Of a stretch of DNA of 4,539 nt, positions 1 to 4,539 are shown in pieces. The notes beneath the pieces were generated by a model. It was not told the DNA's origin. It did not search any database and worked only from the letters and a program-made list of their open reading frames with translations. The stretch lies in IMG/VR virus record IMGVR_UViG_2778261274_000003; one strand, 5' to 3'. The stretch is from a virus (lineage: Duplodnaviria; Heunggongvirae; Uroviricota; Caudoviricetes). Position numbers and translations under genes: made by a program. The first letter of the stretch is position 1; each line of letters begins with the position of its first letter.

Positions 1-56
1 ACACTGAATCTCCCGTCCAAAAGCGCAAATCATGCCATGCAGGCCAGAAACGGCCA

Positions 57-82
57 TTATTTAAAACCTCGGTTTACAGGAA
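57..82. repeat. 26-bp serine-invertase crossover site (gix/cix/hix-like), left boundary of the invertible segment
   Basis: Sequence TTATTTAAAACC-TC-GGTTTACAGGAA is two imperfect inverted 12-bp half-sites around a 2-bp core (69-70). Its reverse-complement partner is at about 2736-2761, sharing the 12-bp block ACCTCGGTTTAC. It closely matches the Gin/Hin-family crossover-site consensus as I recall it. Confidence 0.8.
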
Positions 83-943
83 ACGGTAAACAGGGCTGGT
101 AACGCCGTGCAAAAAAATGGCGATACCTTGTCCGGTGGGCTTACTTTTGAAAATGACTCAATCCTTGCCTGGATTCGAAATACTGACTGGGCGAAGATTG
201 GATTTAAAAATGATGCCGATGGTGACACTGATTCATACATGTGGTTTGAAACAGGCGACAACGGCAATGAATATTTCAAATGGAGAAGCCGCCAGAGCAC
301 CACAACAAAAGACCTGATGACGCTGAAATGGGATGCACTAAATATTCTTGTTAATGCTGTCATTAATGGCAGTCTTGGAGTTGGTTCGACGAATGCGTTA
401 GGTGGTAGCTCTATTGTTCTTGGTGATAATGACACCGGATTTAAACAGAATGGAGACGGTATTCTGGATGTTTATGCTAATAGTCAGCGTGTATTCCGCT
501 TTCAGAATGGAGTGGCTATTGCTTTTAAAAATATTCAGGCCGGGGATGGTAAAAAATTCACGCTATCCAGCTCCAACAACTCCACAAAGAATGCAACGTT
601 TAATTTATGGGGTGCTTCAACCCGTCCAGTAGTTGCAGAGTTAGGCGATGAGGCAGGATGGCATTTCTATAGCCAGCGAAATACAGATAACTCGGTAATA
701 TTTTCTGTTAACGGTCAGATACAGCCCAGCAACTGGGGGAATTTTGATTCACGCTATGTAAAAGATGTTCGCCTGGGTACGCGTGTTGTTCAATTGATGG
801 CGCGTGGTGGTCGTTATGAAAAAGCCGGACACGCAATTACCGGATTAAGAATCATTGGTGAAGTAGATGGCGATGATGAAGCCATCTTCAGACCAATACA
901 AAAATACATCAATGGCACATGGTATAACGTCGCACAGGTGTAA
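71..943 (+). CDS. Silent alternative tail-fibre C-terminal cassette (receptor-binding region, P2 gpH-like); no start codon of its own
   Basis: Open frame from the crossover site to TAA at 941-943. An in-frame TAA at 62-64, inside the outer half-site, closes it upstream. It ends ...RPIQKYINGTWYNVAQV and is followed 3 nt later by a cognate Tfa gene. The ORF-track start at 107 is a GTG inside this frame and is probably not a real start. Confidence 0.8.
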   Translation, partial: GLQETVNRAGNAVQKNGDTLSGGLTFENDSILAWIRNTDWAKIGFKNDADGDTDSYMWFETGDNGNEYFKWRSRQSTTTKDLMTLKWDALNILVNAVINGSLGVGSTNALGGSSIVLGDNDTGFKQNGDGILDVYANSQRVFRFQNGVAIAFKNIQAGDGKKFTLSSSNNSTKNATFNLWGASTRPVVAELGDEAGWHFYSQRNTDNSVIFSVNGQIQPSNWGNFDSRYVKDVRLGTRVVQLMARGGRYEKAGHAITGLRIIGEVDGDDEAIFRPIQKYINGTWYNVAQV

Positions 944-946
944 ATT

Positions 947-1474
947 ATGCAGCATTTAAAAAATATTAAGTCCGGAAATCCAAAAACAAAAGAACAATAT
1001 CAGCTAACAAAGAATTTTGATGTTATCTGGTTATGGTCCGAAGACGGTAAAAACTGGTATGAGGAAGTAAATAACTTTCAGGACGACACCATAAAGATTG
1101 TATACGACGAAAATAATATTATTGTTGCCATAACCAAAGATGCCTCAACGCTTAATCCCGAAGGCTTTAGTGTCGTTGAGATTCCAGATATAACAGCCAA
1201 TCGTCGTGCCGATGATTCAGGGAAGTGGATGTTTAAGGACGGAACTGTGGTTAAGCGGATTTATACAGCAGACGAACAGCAACAACAGGCCGAATCACAA
1301 AAGGTCGCGTTGCTTTCTGAAGCTGAAAGCGTTATTCAGCCACTGGAACGCGCTGTCAGGCTGAATATGGCGACGGATGAGGAACGCACACGACTGGAGT
1401 CATGGGAACGCTACAGCGTTCTGGTCAGCCGTGTGGATACAGCAAATCCCGAATGGCCACAAAAGCCTGAGTAA
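947..1474 (+). CDS. Tail-fibre assembly chaperone (Tfa), 175 aa, P2 gpG / Mu U-like
   Basis: ATG at 947 with AGGTG about 8 nt upstream. The N-terminus [22 protein letters not shown]...DGKNWYEE is the conserved Tfa N-domain. The 175-aa length matches P2 gpG as I recall it. It sits directly after the fibre cassette stop. Confidence 0.85.
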
Positions 1475-1479
1475 AAATT

Positions 1480-1499
1480 AAGGCCCGATATCGGGCCTT
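1480..1499. terminator. Bidirectional intrinsic terminator (20-bp perfect palindrome) between the convergent Tfa genes
   Basis: AAGGCCCGATATCGGGCCTT is a perfect palindrome with a GC-rich 6-bp stem. T-rich tracts follow on both strands (TTCTCTCATTC on plus, TTAATTTTTAC on minus). It lies in the 28-bp gap between the stops at 1474 and 1503. Confidence 0.6.
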
Positions 1500-1502
1500 C
1501 TC

Positions 1503-2036
1503 TCATTCTGGTTGTTCGGGAAACGTTACTGGCAGGCTGGAGGTGTCTGTAGATTCGACTTTCTGCGCAAAGAGCATCCACTCGGTTAATTTCTGCTTAT
1601 TCTCGTCGGAAATGATGCCCAGCCGTAGCTGTGAGTCCCATAGCTGGGTTTTATCCCTGACAAGTTGCAACAGGCTTTGCTTTTCATTTTCCGCTTGTTG
1701 TCTCTGCTCTTCCTCGGTATAAGTTCGCTTTATCACTACGCCATCTTTGAACATCCATTTCCCCGAAATATCAGCCCGGCGATTTGCTGTAATATCAGGT
1801 AATTCAACGACGCTTGCGCCTTCCGGATTAATTGCTGAAACATCCTTTTCAATACAAATAATAACGCCGTTATGGTCATAGACCATTTTCAAAGTGTCTG
1901 GCTGGAAATTCTTTTGTTCCTCATACCAGTTTTTTCCATCATCTGAATAAAGCCATTTGATGTTAAATTGCTTTGTTAGCTGGTATTGCTCTTTTGTTTT
2001 AGGGTTGCCAGCAGTAATGTTTTTTAAGTGCATCAT
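1503..2036 (-). CDS. Tail-fibre assembly chaperone (Tfa), 176-177 aa, cognate to the currently expressed fibre C-terminus
   Basis: ATG-ATG start at 2036/2033 with GGGGAG about 10 nt upstream, 2 nt after the fibre stop. The N-terminus [22 protein letters not shown]...DGKNWYEE is paralogous to the plus-strand Tfa, and the C-terminal third diverges. Confidence 0.85.
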   Translation of the reverse strand: MMHLKNITAGNPKTKEQYQLTKQFNIKWLYSDDGKNWYEEQKNFQPDTLKMVYDHNGVIICIEKDVSAINPEGASVVELPDITANRRADISGKWMFKDGVVIKRTYTEEEQRQQAENEKQSLLQLVRDKTQLWDSQLRLGIISDENKQKLTEWMLFAQKVESTDTSSLPVTFPEQPE

Positions 2037-2038
2037 CG

Positions 2039-3877
2039 TTAAATACTCCCCGCGTTATACCACGTCCCATTAATGCAATACTGAATTGGCCTTGCCTGTG
2101 TTGTATCAATTAATTCATCACGGTTTCCGTTAACTGAACCCGTAACGACATAACCTGACCTGTCAGACCAGCCGGGACCATTCCATGTCTGAACAGATGA
2201 CAGACCGCCAAGGCGAATACCTGTAATAAACCTTGAGTTACATTCTGCCTGCGTATATGCACCAACATCTCCCGCTGAAGGTTTTCGTGTCGTGGTATAG
2301 AAATCTGACCAACCTAATTCAAACCCATAACCATCACGAGCCGACCTGTAGGAAATGCCACCATTTTTATAATTCACACGGAATTGTACGGCAGGACAGC
2401 TACCAGCATTTATATTAAAGTGAAGAATTAATACAGATGCACCACCAATCAGGGCGTTATATGCACCACTATCCCAATTCCATCCAACGGATGTATCACC
2501 ATTAACAGTATTACCTGTTTGTCGGAGTGCAAATGCATTGACATTTTTGGCACTAATTGAAATATCGCTAGAACCATCAAAACCAACTCCAGCAATTTTT
2601 CGTGCTGTTTTCAGCTTTGTTGCAGTAGCGGCATTGCCGGACAGTTCCCCAGAAAGGCCACCGCTGAATGTTTGTCGATTGGTCCAGGTATTCGCTGTAC
2701 TGAGTAACGGTATTTTCTCCCCGCTTGTGCCGAGTTCTCGTAAACCGAGGTATTCGATAACGGCGGCAACGGTCGATTTCGCAAGAATATCCCGCCCGAC
2801 TTTTGTCAGAGTTGCCAGGCTGGCGACATCATTCCCCGTAAAATACGGAAACCTGTCTGCCGCAGTAGCAAGCCCGGCCAGCGCCGTCAGGGTGGCATCT
2901 TTCGGTTGCTTACCCGCAAGCGCGTTAGTCATGGTGGTCGCAAAATTCGGGTCGTTGCCCAGCGCCGCAGCCAGCTCGTTCAGCGTGTTCAGTGCATCAG
3001 GTGACGAATCTACAAGGGCGGCAATCGCAGCCATAACGAAAGCCGTGCTTGCGATTTGGGTATTATTCGTTCCCTGTCGCGCAGTTGGTGTTGTTGGCGT
3101 TCCGGTCAGCGCCGGGCTGTTTAATGGGGCTTTCTTATTTGTTTCATCCATTACTGCCTTAACCGCTTTCGATGTCGCGGCCAGTGTTTCAGACGTGCTG
3201 TTGGTGGCACTACTGAGCTGGACAATCCCTTTTTGTGCCGTCGTGGCGTCCTGAGCGGTATATTTTGCGTTAGCAAGATCATACGCGGCCTTTACCGCTT
3301 TTGGTGTTGCGGCGAGCGTTTCAGAGGTGCTGTTGGTGGCACTACTGAGCTGGACAAGACCTTTTCGCGCTGTAGTGGCGTCCTGTGCGGTATATTTCCC
3401 GTTAGCAAGGTCATAGGCTGCCTTGACCGCTTTCGGCGTTGCGGCCAGTGCTTCAGACGTGCTGTTGGTGGCGCTACTGAGTTGAACAAAGCCTTTTGCG
3501 GTCAGCGAGGCGTCCGGGTGACGTCGTGACTGTTCATGTTCTTTCAGTTTGTCATTCACGTAATCCACTGTGGCCATAACCATGGTGTTATCCACGGTAA
3601 GCGCCACGGTGGCAGTGCTGGATACGGTCAGAATGGTGCGAAATGTTTGTGCACGTCCGGATCCTTCGGCAACGGCTGGCTTGTAACTTTCGGCAGTATT
3701 GCCCACCGCGATCAAATCGCCGTGCTCATCAAATACACCAATTTCCCGGATCCAGAATCCGCCCGTTTCAGGAGGAATAACCAGCTCCGCAATAATGCGG
3801 TTCTGATGTGTTGCGTCCAGGATGACGCGATTAACAGTATGTCGCCACACCTCATGCACCAGACGGGTCTGCTTCAC
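2039..3877 (-). CDS. Tail-fibre protein, 612 aa as currently assembled (constant N-terminal shaft plus invertible C-terminal receptor-binding domain); apparently 5'-truncated
   Basis: Long ORF with a 132-bp tandem repeat region in the shaft. The crossover site is embedded in frame (…AAVIEYLGLRELGTSGEK…). The C-terminal domain contains GELSGNAATATKLKTARK and ends RPIQYCINGTWYNAGSI, typical of lambda Stf / Mu S / P2 H fibres. The start is GTG with no recognisable Shine-Dalgarno, and an in-frame stop lies 5 codons upstream. Confidence 0.85.
   Translation of the reverse strand: MKQTRLVHEVWRHTVNRVILDATHQNRIIAELVIPPETGGFWIREIGVFDEHGDLIAVGNTAESYKPAVAEGSGRAQTFRTILTVSSTATVALTVDNTMVMATVDYVNDKLKEHEQSRRHPDASLTAKGFVQLSSATNSTSEALAATPKAVKAAYDLANGKYTAQDATTARKGLVQLSSATNSTSETLAATPKAVKAAYDLANAKYTAQDATTAQKGIVQLSSATNSTSETLAATSKAVKAVMDETNKKAPLNSPALTGTPTTPTARQGTNNTQIASTAFVMAAIAALVDSSPDALNTLNELAAALGNDPNFATTMTNALAGKQPKDATLTALAGLATAADRFPYFTGNDVASLATLTKVGRDILAKSTVAAVIEYLGLRELGTSGEKIPLLSTANTWTNRQTFSGGLSGELSGNAATATKLKTARKIAGVGFDGSSDISISAKNVNAFALRQTGNTVNGDTSVGWNWDSGAYNALIGGASVLILHFNINAGSCPAVQFRVNYKNGGISYRSARDGYGFELGWSDFYTTTRKPSAGDVGAYTQAECNSRFITGIRLGGLSSVQTWNGPGWSDRSGYVVTGSVNGNRDELIDTTQARPIQYCINGTWYNAGSI
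2736..2761. repeat. 26-bp serine-invertase crossover site (gix/cix/hix-like), right boundary, embedded in the fibre coding sequence
   Basis: Plus strand TTCTCGTAAACC-GA-GGTATTCGATAA; its reverse complement TTATCGAATACC-TC-GGTTTACGAGAA is the inverted partner of 57-82 with the same TC core. It encodes VIEYLGLRE. Coordinates are +/-1 bp because of the frame discrepancy at line boundary 2700/2701. Confidence 0.8.
3152..3496 (-). repeat. In-frame tandem array (about 2.6 copies) of a 132-bp / 44-aa repeat in the fibre shaft
   Basis: Protein repeats KG[FLI]VQLSSATNSTSE[AT]LAATPKAVKAAYDLAN[GA]KYTAQDATTA[RQ]. The DNA block TCAGA(C/G)GTGCTGTTGGTGGC(A/G)CTACTGAG recurs at plus-strand 3189, 3321 and 3453, exactly 132 bp apart. 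Confidence 0.85.
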
Positions 3878-3885
3878 GCAGGGAA

Positions 3886-4206
3886 TCAGTTTTCAGCATG
3901 GCTGTTGTCCTCGTTGTTCAGTCGTTGCAGTCTGCGCTGCTCCAGTAATTCAATGGCCCGTTTATCCGCGTTACAGGTTTCCAGTGCATCCAGAAGGCGG
4001 TCGCCCCATATACCGAGATTTCCCCATGTGGGAGTATCAGGGAAGGGGGGAGGCATTACCGGTATGGTCAGCGTCTGCGGTATAAGCCGGACTGACGGCG
4101 CTGGCCGTGGCGCGTTCTGCGTGCCTGCGCAACCTGTCAGTAAAACGAGCGTCAGGCAAAGCGTGGGCGCATTCATCTTTTGCAATATCGTTGCGTAGCT
4201 GTTCAC
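3886..4206 (-). CDS. o-spanin (Rz1-like outer-membrane lipoprotein), overlapping the i-spanin gene
   Basis: Lipobox L-T-G-C after a hydrophobic stretch (…TLCLTLVLLTGCAG), then a proline-rich segment (APRPAPSVRLIPQTLTIPVMPPPFPDTPT). It starts inside the i-spanin gene in another frame and runs 150 nt past its stop. The GTG at 4206 has GGAGAG upstream; an alternative ATG is at 4176. Confidence 0.65.
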   Translation of the reverse strand: MNSYATILQKMNAPTLCLTLVLLTGCAGTQNAPRPAPSVRLIPQTLTIPVMPPPFPDTPTWGNLGIWGDRLLDALETCNADKRAIELLEQRRLQRLNNEDNSHAEN

Positions 4207-4444
4207 GTCTGGCCTCTCCGTCCTGATTGCGTTGCTGATTTTCCGCGCGGAGTTGTGCCAGCACCTGCTGCATATCCTGTACCCCGGCGCTGATGATATT
4301 CAGGGTGTCGACGGTACTTTTCAGGGTGCTGGCCTGCGCTTCGTTTCTGGCGTTCTCCCGGCCCAGTGACCACGACAGACGCATGGATGCTCCCCAGGCG
4401 GCAATCAGAAGAAAAGCGACGCCCAGCGTGGGCCAGAGCTTCAT
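4037..4444 (-). CDS. i-spanin (Rz-like inner-membrane spanin), about 135 aa
   Basis: Start at ATG 4444 gives an N-terminal transmembrane segment MKLWPTLGVAFLLIAAWGASM followed by charged, coiled-coil-like sequence. The ATG overlaps the upstream gene stop (ATGA), with GGAG about 11 nt upstream. The ORF-track extension to 4513 overlaps the upstream gene frame and reads as non-protein-like. Confidence 0.6.
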   Translation of the reverse strand: MKLWPTLGVAFLLIAAWGASMRLSWSLGRENARNEAQASTLKSTVDTLNIISAGVQDMQQVLAQLRAENQQRNQDGEARREQLRNDIAKDECAHALPDARFTDRLRRHAERATASAVSPAYTADADHTGNASPLP

Positions 4445-4539
4445 GCCGGATAAACTCCGTGCGGTAACTGAAAATGCGGTCCGTCTTTCAGGGTCTTCCA
4501 GTCGCCGCCCCATTCCACCGGAATATTCAGTTCCCGGCT
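4441..4539 (-). CDS. 3' end of the upstream lysis gene, probably an endolysin (partial; continues beyond the right edge)
   Basis: Open frame ending …SRELNIPVEWGGDWKTLKDGPHFQLPHGVYPA* with its TGA overlapping the i-spanin ATG. Its position immediately before the spanin pair is where endolysins sit. The WGGDW…D.PHFQ tail recalls LAS/M15-type peptidase endolysins, but that is from memory only. Confidence 0.4.
   Translation of the reverse strand, partial: SRELNIPVEWGGDWKTLKDGPHFQLPHGVYPA

Follow-up and report, generated by a model that had tools for sequence, protein, structure and literature searches.

The window (the whole stretch of DNA analysed, 4,539 nt) very probably holds the distal lysis cassette of a P88-like prophage, together with a tail-fibre gene that adjoins the cassette through a deletion of 3571 bp. 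The lysis genes in view include two overlapping genes whose sequences and modelled structure support their reading as a spanin pair, that is, an i-spanin and an o-spanin. The pair is a known system, a routine member of its family, and it lies in a defective prophage. In RefSeq the two proteins already have names: 'DUF2570 protein' for the i-spanin and 'LysC' for the o-spanin.

Source element

DNA identity places the element among the P88-like prophages of E. coli (Xuanwuvirus, P2-like Peduoviridae). Its lysis block was matched by megablast in 1070 of 5426 complete E. coli genomes. Positions 3863-4539 are 96-98% identical to phage records (P88, 503458, 520873 and others), and E. coli prophages reach up to 99.7-100% DNA identity on the lysis side. 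On the fibre side, identity to the fibre region of an E. coli O145:H28 prophage is 99.95%; on the lysis side that prophage reaches only 97.8%. Both sides of the window are 96-100% identical to P88-like prophages, yet late-gene collinearity is broken: the collinear order lysC-R-S-V-W-J-I-H-tfa-invertible segment-invertase does not appear. The window has lost S, V, W, J and I, all of R past codon 9 and the first 50 codons of H; it is thus a deletion derivative rather than an intact member of the group. The spanins, the endolysin end and the fibre and assembly genes all lie on the minus strand (Table 1).

Table 1. Features of the window, with positions counted from its first base
Feature	Position	Strand	Remarks
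Endolysin 3' end, M15 metallopeptidase	4441..4539	-	last 32 codons and stop; gene leaves the window
ATGA start/stop overlap	4441..4444	-	endolysin TGA 4443..4441; i-spanin ATG 4444..4442
i-spanin gene	4037..4444	-	135 aa; ATG 4444..4442, stop 4039..4037
o-spanin gene, predicted LysC-type outer-membrane lipoprotein	3886..4206	-	+1 frame relative to i-spanin; stop 3888..3886
Lipobox L-T-G-C	4129..4140	-	Cys codon 4131..4129
Gene R remnant (tail completion)	3852..3899	-	ATG 3899..3897 overlaps the lysC end
Deletion junction	3871..3874	-	4-bp microhomology AAGC
5'-truncated tail-fibre gene (P2 gpH type)	2039..3877	-	H codons 51-661 at 3874..2039
Tail-fibre assembly (chaperone) gene	1503..2036	-	expressed orientation; Pfam Caudo_TAP 4.8e-36; phrog_136 4.7e-74
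Alternative assembly gene	947-1474	+	within invertible segment
Alternative fibre C-terminus	107-943	+	within invertible segment
Invertible fibre-tip segment	53..2764		Din-type crossover sites, arms 53-82 and 2735-2764 (inverted repeat)

The spanin pair

Membership was judged against the two-component spanins of overlapped architecture (Summer 2007; Kongari 2018). In the i-spanin, residues 3-21 (4438..4382, LWPTLGVAFLLIAAWGASM) form an uncharged hydrophobic stretch between K2 and R22, a candidate N-terminal anchor whose maximum 19-aa Kyte-Doolittle mean of 1.58 lies just below the classical threshold of 1.6. An AF2 single-sequence model gives a helix at residues 4-94, a break at 95-98, a helix at 99-116 and a disordered tail, with block pLDDT values of 88-98 across residues 11-90. 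The hydropathy rule and the AF2 helix point to type II topology with one N-terminal anchor, and the same model predicts a mainly helical periplasmic domain of two segments and a linker. The protein has a single Cys (residue 92) and is found in identical form in 5458 blocks of a public assembly collection. It matches phrog_214 ('Rz-like spanin') at 4e-41; its Pfam score for DUF2570, 20.7 bits, is under the 26.6 cut-off.

The second gene is, by rule, a predicted lipoprotein: its lipobox fits the consensus [LVI][ASTVI][GAS]C (PMC6139136), with the Cys at residue 16 counted from ATG 4176 or 26 counted from GTG 4206. Because residue +2 is Ala and not Asp, sorting to the outer membrane would be expected. 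The mature protein opens with a Pro-rich linker (10 Pro in the first 40 residues); unlike P2 LysC, both candidate N-termini are free of K and R over their first seven residues. The protein matches Pfam LysC (PF23793; 1.4e-13, 51 bits against a cut-off of 27) and also phrog_3001 and phrog_456 (Rz-like spanin). NCBIfam NF038368 (P2_Rz1) had no match among the window proteins at E<=0.01, and these profiles assign the o-spanin to the broad LysC family rather than to the P2 equivalog. By an earlier note on this DNA, the spanin reading would fall if the o-spanin frame had no predicted lipoprotein signal or the i-spanin no transmembrane segment; the consensus lipobox and the rule-based and AF2 reading of residues 3-21 speak for both features.

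The o-spanin begins within the i-spanin gene, in another frame, and ends beyond its stop, which is the overlapped architecture. The overlap is 140 nt from ATG 4176 or 170 nt from GTG 4206, and the o-spanin runs 151 nt past the i-spanin stop with its own stop codon counted. The earlier note had likewise seen an o-spanin that starts inside the i-spanin gene in a different frame, and had compared the layout to P2 lysB/lysC rather than to the embedded genes of lambda. This comparison holds; only the overhang it gave, 150 nt, becomes 151 nt with the stop codon. A layout of the P2 lysB/lysC type follows from the element itself being a P2-like (Peduoviridae) prophage. Among two-component spanins the overlapped layout is the commonest, and P2 LysB/LysC is its paradigm (Kongari et al. 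2018, PMC6139136).

The +1 ORF, the invariant LLTGC and the 151-nt overhang are kept in 86 of 86 close copies. The overlapped layout is also present in Klebsiella and Enterobacter P2-like phages, where the o-spanins are only ~45% identical, and the overlap has about half the nucleotide diversity of the single-coding flanks. Because it is kept in all close copies and in distant peduoviruses, and because diversity is halved in the overlap, the +1 ORF is more than chance. A hairpin scan of positions 3500-4539 returned two overlapping weak hairpins at the i-spanin 5' end, no more than shuffled sequence gives, and none matching the attenuator/terminator annotated within lysC of P2. An Rfam search of the window found nothing.

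Two in-frame starts are available to the o-spanin, GTG 4206 (106 aa) and ATG 4176 (96 aa). The GTG is preceded by the Shine-Dalgarno (SD) sequence GGAGAGG at 4219..4213 with a 6-nt spacer, whereas ATG 4176 has no SD. Between the two codons 1 of 30 sites is variable, compared with 50 of 238 upstream, and GTG 4206 is invariant across 59 distinct relatives, one of which has ACG in place of ATG 4176. Translation thus probably begins at GTG 4206. If so, none of the database forms (65, 89 and 96 aa) has the right N-terminus, and 170 nt are dual-coding. RefSeq calls the protein inconsistently, at 65 aa or 89 aa, and P88 and similar phage records leave the ORF unannotated; that overlapped o-spanins go unannotated is a documented bias of gene callers (PMC6139136).

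The lysis cassette upstream

The 3' end of the endolysin gene, directly upstream of the i-spanin, places the pair in a lysis cassette. Its fragment (translation ...ELNIPVEWGGDWKTLKDGPHFQLPHGVYPA, then the stop) matches Pfam Peptidase_M15_4 at 29.3 bits (cut-off 25) and phrog_465 endolysin at 6.9e-15, and the equivalent gene in P88 and E. coli relatives is annotated as an endolysin / M15 metallopeptidase. In relatives the cassette consists of holin, M15 endolysin and overlapping two-component spanin genes, and the intact order continues from i-spanin and LysC to R, S, V, W, J, I and H.

That the i-spanin ATG overlaps the upstream stop as ATGA, another point of the earlier note, can be read directly from the minus strand (GCATGAAG at 4446..4439). 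An SD, GGAG, lies at 4458..4455, 10 nt upstream of this ATG. The same 4-nt overlap of endolysin and i-spanin is annotated in P88 and strain 2017-19-1CC, and ATGA overlaps recur in relatives at the holin/endolysin and endolysin/i-spanin junctions. Such overlaps probably couple the translation of successive genes in the operon. The visible part of the lysis cassette reads as intact.

The junction between lysC and the fibre gene

Beyond lysC, nine codons of gene R run into out-of-frame fibre sequence and leave a 15-aa stub (MLKTDSLREADPSGA, then a stop). At the junction site, 86 relatives all have the intact R 5' end, ATGCTGAAAACTGATTCCCTGCGTGAAGCCATGACCCGT..., without variation; the window reads ...CTGCGTGAAGCAGACCCGTCTGGTGCATGA. 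R codon 9 is joined to codon 51 of fibre gene H, and compared with intact relatives ~3571 bp are missing (R codons 10-155, S, V, W, J, I and H codons 1-50). Homology of the lysis block extends to 3863 and that of the fibre block to 3874. Relatives show no variation in the R and H alleles at this point, and both intact parental sequences could be read. The shared AAGC sits within an imperfect short direct repeat, AAGC(CAT/A)GACCCGT (12/14 nt). BLAST overlaps had suggested a 12-bp microhomology; this was rejected on the parental sequences, which give 4 bp and, close by, a 7-bp match shifted by 2 nt. The fibre invertase was also considered as the maker of the junction and dismissed, the R/H junction sequences being unlike the crossover sites at 53-82 and 2735-2764.

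The intact H homologue has 661 aa. In the window, the Pfam Phage_tail_fib N-terminal domain is matched from profile position 47 of 150, and Phage_fiber_2 repeats are found at 9.8e-61. The sole in-frame start upstream of the truncated fibre is GTG 3877, which is formed from R-derived bases and has no SD. P88 has the invertible fibre-tip segment in the opposite orientation, and in relatives an invertase gene is found immediately to the left of window base 1.

The order R-S-V-W-J-I-H after lysC holds in each of the 93 relatives examined, as far as their sequence reaches. Measured from the i-spanin start, R lies at +545 in relatives and H between about +3990 and +4160; in the window H stands at +561, a spacing that none of the relatives share. 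The fibre gene adjoins the lysis cassette because the 3571-bp deletion removed the tail-completion and baseplate genes. The earlier note was therefore right to call a lysis cassette beside a fibre gene unusual, since GTG 3877 lies 8 nt past the o-spanin stop where relatives have R-S-V-W-J-I in between; the sequence comparison identifies this neighbourhood as a deletion scar, not a natural gene order.

Junction patterns of 36 nt and 26 nt were absent from GTDB representative genomes, and a junction-spanning pattern was absent from IMG/VR and, in a separate scan, from JGI metagenomes (one pattern each). Megablast against 5426 complete E. coli genomes and 50,697 phage records gave no match beyond 81-85% of the query. 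Exact look-up found no record of truncated-fibre products of 612, 606 or 603 aa. A 514-aa form is on record only on a draft O145:H28 contig; this contig starts 39 nt short of the junction, so the match is uninformative. As the junction occurs in no searched collection, it is private to its source or, less likely, an artefact. Two modest readings, an o-spanin start at GTG 4206 and a 3.57-kb deletion that is a real private event, are together given even odds.

Alternative explanations

The junction of spanin and fibre genes could be non-biological, i.e. a chimera of assembly, clone or read, or else two P88-like prophage fragments joined in an engineered or edited sequence. Its absence from the complete E. 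coli genomes, GTDB representatives, IMG/VR and JGI metagenomes would fit such an origin, as would the missing records for three of the four truncated-fibre products (the fourth being on the contig that stops short of the junction) and the different nearest relatives of the two sides. Moreover, matching E. coli genomes have a median of two matching places, which offers an opportunity for mis-joins. However, graph assemblers join at long shared k-mers and the parents share only AAGC, itself part of an imperfect repeat (12/14 nt) between two unrelated genes. The breakpoints have the same orientation and the gene order is right for a simple intra-prophage deletion, while differing relatives are normal where neighbouring modules are mosaic, as in P88-like prophages. 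Absence from a collection with one genome per species says little, given how poorly it covers E. coli and Shigella. We therefore think an artefact unlikely and retain a deletion within the prophage as the origin of the junction.

Far less probable is that a distinct phage or tailocin-like lineage has the order of lysis cassette and fibre as its natural, functional arrangement. The frames are intact on both sides up to the junction, and the fibre frame has a GTG at 3877. Yet this codon has no SD and consists of R-derived bases, the fibre gene is missing 50 codons at the start of a conserved N-terminal domain, and a 9-codon stump of R persists. All 93 relatives keep R-S-V-W-J-I between lysC and H where their sequence extends, and no searched collection holds a second example of a lysC-H junction. 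We give just as little credence to the +1-frame ORF being an unexpressed chance frame, with the outer membrane disrupted by the i-spanin-like protein alone or not disrupted at all. P88 and like phage records do lack an o-spanin annotation, RefSeq lengths are inconsistent (65 or 89 aa) and ATG 4176 has no SD, but the missing annotation fits the gene-caller bias (PMC6139136) and a good SD precedes GTG 4206. The ORF is also well above the Pfam LysC threshold and homologous to P2 LysC and the APSE-1 o-spanin, its lipobox is invariant and its frame open in 86 of 86 copies and in distant peduoviruses, and diversity in the overlap is reduced. An expressed o-spanin remains the preferred reading of this frame.

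Expected function and significance

To our knowledge, experiments on spanin mechanism have been made on a single pair, lambda Rz/Rz1, and what follows is the expectation by analogy with that work. The N-terminal helix would hold the i-spanin in the inner membrane, with the protein's long helical domain reaching into the periplasm. The o-spanin, translated from the +1 frame, would have its signal peptide cut at the lipobox Cys, which would be lipidated, and the protein would be sorted to the outer membrane. The two would bind each other across the periplasm, through their C-terminal regions as in the definition of two-component spanins, and, after the endolysin has removed the peptidoglycan, the complex would fuse both membranes and complete lysis (for background on spanin mechanism and architecture, see PMC6139136).

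The deletion itself very probably arose between the short imperfect direct repeats, by a crossover in the 4-bp AAGC that fused R codon 9 to H codon 51. Prophage decay by microhomology deletion is commonplace. With most of R, S, V, W, J, I and the H 5' end lost, the prophage should be unable to build tails. If the deletion is real and private, the result would be a tail-less yet lysis-competent prophage, with read-through from the head/lysis operon into the truncated fibre gene and the chaperone gene.

Neither the GTG start nor a private deletion alters the kind of system, and a routine spanin family, which over a thousand E. coli genomes already have annotated, carries little biological weight. 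For annotation, three points matter: a lysis cassette beside a fibre gene should be taken for the sign of a defective prophage, not for a new gene order; phage records omit this family's o-spanin, or it is given N-termini without a signal peptide; and the comparative data favour the upstream GTG as its start.

Comparison with known systems

The closest systems are those of P88 and other Xuanwuvirus relatives, which have equal gene lengths, the ATGA overlaps and the 151-nt o-spanin overhang. They differ from the window in that the end of lysC runs into the start of R, with S, V, W, J, I and H behind it, as in all other relatives examined; the window has lost 3.57 kb of this stretch.

P2 LysB/LysC belongs to the same family of phages, and its spanins are likewise placed between the endolysin and gene R. 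The P2 genes are overlapped as well, with an overlap of 146 nt, an overhang of 145 nt and a lysC that overlaps the R start. Both o-spanins have 96 aa when counted from ATG, are 32% identical (E 4e-6) and match Pfam LysC. P2 differs in its endolysin type (K) and its extra gene lysA. The i-spanins also diverge: BLASTP found no significant match between the window i-spanin and LysB, TIGR03495 (LysB) matched none of the window proteins, and the two belong to different PHROGs (phrog_214 and phrog_89). At the level of sequence, then, the i-spanin is not LysB; weak reciprocal PHROG cross-matches near 2e-4 hint at a remote relatedness.

The o-spanin also has a homologue in a curated family. In Kongari et al. 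(PMC6139136), the APSE-1 o-spanin stands in the 'Mu' o-spanin family; this one member, the only one compared, is 39% identical to the window o-spanin over 69 aa (E 1e-11). The two share the LLTGC lipobox and a TWG...L.AL..CN.DK.AI motif with a conserved Cys. By eye, the C-terminal ERCAHLPVP...RLRAHA of the APSE-1 i-spanin resembles DECAHALPDA...RLRRHA in the window. The phages of the 'Mu' family are not peduoviruses, and P88 does not appear in the searched part of the curated spanin table (PMC6139136 supplement).

With lambda Rz/Rz1, the window pair shares a predicted topology, i.e. a type II inner-membrane protein with two helical segments and a Pro-rich outer-membrane lipoprotein, as well as the position of the genes at the end of the lysis cassette (PMC6139136). 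The window proteins match other Rz-like PHROGs and the Pfam LysC model, and the mature o-spanin has 81 aa compared with 40 aa for Rz1. Finally, Rz1 is wholly embedded in Rz, whereas the o-spanin of the window runs past the i-spanin stop.

Gene layout of the lysis region

All genes of the lysis/fibre region, read directly from the window, lie on the minus strand. The earlier note had described an o-spanin gene that starts inside the i-spanin gene in a different frame, and an i-spanin ATG that overlaps the stop of the upstream gene as ATGA. Both descriptions are accurate, and the upstream gene is the endolysin. The o-spanin ORF overlaps the i-spanin ORF by 140 nt (counted from the ATG start) or 170 nt (from the GTG) and extends 151 nt beyond its stop. 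From the ATGA overlap and a Shine-Dalgarno (SD) sequence at 4458..4455, we infer that i-spanin translation is coupled to endolysin termination.

Coordinates of features in the window and of the o-spanin gene in related loci
Feature	Coordinates	Strand	Remarks
Endolysin 3' end, last 32 residues, ending ...GGDWKTLKDGPHFQLPHGVYPA and stop	4539..4441	-	matches Peptidase_M15_4 and PHROG endolysin families
Endolysin TGA overlapping i-spanin ATG	TGA 4443..4441, ATG 4444..4442	-	direct reading
i-spanin ORF, 135 codons	ATG 4444..4442, end 4037	-	direct reading
o-spanin ORF, +1 frame	start ATG 4176 (96 aa) or GTG 4206 (106 aa), end 3886	-	
R stub, 15 aa	3899..3852	-	left after deletion
Fibre ORF, 612 codons	first possible start GTG 3877	-	start 8 nt past o-spanin stop
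Din-type inverted crossover sites, core AAACCTCGGTTTAC	53-82 and 2735-2764		
Invertible-segment ORFs	107-943, 947-1474	+	
Invertible-segment ORFs	1503-2036, 2039-2764	-	
Perfect 16-nt inverted repeat, CGGCCAGCGCCGTCAG / CTGACGGCGCTGGCCG	2875-2890 and 4092-4107		fibre gene and spanin overlap region
Three tandem 132-nt repeats	3156-3551		fibre shaft
o-spanin gene in related loci	L002 9797-10066; L003 6362-6559; L013 14457-14654		

Identity of the two spanins

The interpretation as a spanin pair is supported by family matches, topology signals and the conservation of both frames. The 135-aa protein has the predicted features of an i-spanin. It matches phrog_214 ('Rz-like spanin', 4e-41), its residues 3-21 are uncharged (Kyte-Doolittle mean 1.58) and flanked by K2 and R22, and a single-sequence AlphaFold2 model places one helix at 4-94 (block pLDDT 88-98, residues 11-90) and another at 99-116, followed by a disordered tail. 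It thus shares the layout given for i-spanins in PMC6139136, that is, a membrane anchor followed by two helical segments with a linker between them. At the sequence level this i-spanin is not a LysB: neither P2 LysB (BLASTP) nor the TIGR03495 profile matched it, its DUF2570 score falls below the family threshold, and the relation to LysB consists of weak reciprocal PHROG cross-hits (near 2e-4). A public assembly collection contains 5458 blocks that list the identical protein.

Judged from its sequence, the +1-frame protein has o-spanin features. Its score against Pfam LysC ('Rz1-like lysis system protein') is 51 bits (cut-off 27), and 10 prolines fall within the first 40 residues of the mature form. 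The lipoprotein reading of the earlier note is supported by a consensus lipobox (L-T-G-C) directly followed by Ala. The comparison with curated spanin families that it had proposed gave a match to the APSE-1 o-spanin (39% identity, E 1e-11), which Kongari et al. (PMC6139136) assign to their 'Mu' o-spanin family. Identity to P2 LysC is 32% (E 4e-6).

With moderate confidence, we favour GTG 4206 over ATG 4176 as the o-spanin start, because the GTG is preceded by an SD (GGAGAGG, 6-nt spacer) and is invariant among relatives, the 30 nt between the two codons contain one variable site (vs 50/238 just upstream), and the ATG is replaced by ACG in one relative. The ATG has no SD; it aligns with the ATG starts of Klebsiella and Enterobacter homologues. 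Database forms (RefSeq and other gene calls) are inconsistent: a 65-aa form starts MPPPFP, downstream of the signal peptide, and an 89-aa form uses a CTG start and so retains 8 residues of signal. In phage records (P88, for example) the gene is mostly left unannotated. Such missed or misannotated o-spanins are a gene-caller bias documented in PMC6139136.

Conservation and selection

We gathered 93 related loci from NCBI genomes, IMG/VR and phage records, and counted conservation over the 86 copies from which both spanin genes could be extracted. Every one of these has a 135-aa i-spanin, an open +1 frame, the same LLTGC and an o-spanin that ends 151 nt beyond the i-spanin stop. Across the 59 distinct sequences, the share of variable sites is 14% in the overlap, against 21% where only the i-spanin is encoded and 38% where only the o-spanin is; the overlap has about half the mean diversity of each flank. 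The o-spanins of P2-like phages of Klebsiella (Reipivirus) and Enterobacter (Novemvirus) are just ~45% identical to that of the window and keep the overlapped layout, the lipobox-type Cys and a TWG...CNADK motif. These comparisons indicate that the spanin pair is real and selected in both frames.

A probable deletion beside the lysis cassette

The abutting fibre gene, noted earlier as an unusual neighbourhood, is indeed the only unusual point of the system, and is explained by an ordinary prophage-inactivating deletion. In P88, E. coli 2017-19-1CC, O145:H28 strain 16003 and every relative extending far enough, the tail-completion genes R and S come after lysC, then the baseplate genes V, W, J and I, and finally the fibre gene H. 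Counted from the start of the i-spanin, relatives have R at +545 and H at ~+3990 to +4160; the window has H at +561, with a match that starts at residue 48, and its match to the N-terminal fibre domain of Pfam starts at profile position 47 of 150. The junction was fixed by comparing the window with intact R (ATGCTGAAAACTGATTCCCTGCGTGAAGCcatgACCCGT...) and intact H (...gacagtAAGCagACCCGTctggtg...), the window reading ...CTGCGTG-AAGC-AGACCCGTCTGGTG... across it. The crossover falls within the 4-bp AAGC (3874..3871, minus strand), inside the imperfect repeat AAGC(CAT/A)GACCCGT, and the junction-site sequences are invariant in R (86 relatives) and H (37 relatives). Such a pattern points to a RecA-independent deletion, with short direct repeats as its end points. 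Relative to 2017-19-1CC, 3571 bp are missing, comprising R codons 10-155, S, V, W, J, I and H codons 1-50.

As far as the window shows it, the lysis cassette is intact. The fibre ORF has lost its native start (GTG 3877 consists of R-derived bases and has no SD), and tail production by the prophage should fail. To judge from the P2 operon map, the terminator that follows S and the V promoter would also have been lost, which would place the truncated fibre gene, together with its chaperone, downstream of the head/lysis operon.

No standard R start follows lysC in seven related prophages (L045, L066, L080, L082, L085, L086, L094). In L045, the one examined, lysC and R are separated by a gene for a 626-aa NanS-p-like sialate O-acetylesterase (5547-7427; DUF1737, SASA and DUF6645 domains), and LysC has a replaced C-terminus. 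This phage group thus varies at the lysC/R boundary, the point at which the window deletion starts.

It is improbable that the spanin/fibre junction is an artefact. Non-homologous genes are joined at a 4-bp microhomology in correct order and orientation, which has the look of a genuine deletion, unlike an assembler product. The junction is, admittedly, without independent confirmation: it is absent from every collection searched (complete E. coli genomes, phage records, GTDB representatives, IMG/VR and JGI metagenomes), although E. coli/Shigella diversity is thinly sampled in a one-genome-per-species collection. Look-ups of the truncated fibre product found solely a draft O145:H28 contig (L097, BJPG01000047.1, 1-1794) that starts inside the fibre gene at the equivalent of window 3832, 39 nt short of the junction. 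This contig end is probably a repeat-induced break, so L097 does not confirm the junction.

An artefact would also fit the nearest relatives, which differ between the two sides. The fibre block (1-3874) differs at 2/3874 nt (99.95% identity) from an E. coli O145:H28 prophage to which the lysis block (3875-4539) is 97.8% identical; the lysis block is identical in 2017-19-1CC, UTAK-3 and others, and the 2017-19-1CC fibre block is 98.2% identical. The window is a mosaic whose fibre/invertible and lysis blocks differ in closest relatives.

The fibre region

A Mu G / P1 C-type invertible tail-fibre segment occupies the left 2.7 kb of the window and encodes two alternative fibre C-termini, with one assembly chaperone each. 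It has the opposite orientation in the P88 record, and the invertase gene of relatives begins immediately to the left of window base 1. The tandem repeats (copies 86% and 64% identical to the first) encode 44-residue Phage_fiber_2 repeats. Both arms of the 16-nt inverted repeat are coding, with no apparent function; by a rough estimate, chance alone would give ~0.003 pairs of this kind in 4.5 kb.

Comparison with known spanin systems

Escherichia phages P88, 503458, 520873, 500465-2 and others (Xuanwuvirus, Peduoviridae) share 96-98% identity with window 3863-4539, and 1070 of 5426 complete E. coli genomes match this region at up to 99.7% identity. The spanin system is already known and widely annotated, and overlapped genes are the commonest two-component architecture (228/528 systems; PMC6139136). 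Sequence analysis supplied the gene structure, the topology signals, the homology, the conservation and the deletion; for the membrane-fusion steps we draw on studies of lambda Rz/Rz1 (summarised in PMC6139136). By that analogy, an i-spanin anchored in the inner membrane and an o-spanin lipidated in the outer membrane would form a periplasm-spanning complex, which would fuse both membranes once the endolysin has degraded the peptidoglycan. The likeness to P2 lysB/lysC proposed earlier is borne out and comes from the P2-like nature of the phage: in P2 the spanin genes sit at the equivalent place in the same layout, overlapping by 146 nt, and lysC overlaps the start of R.
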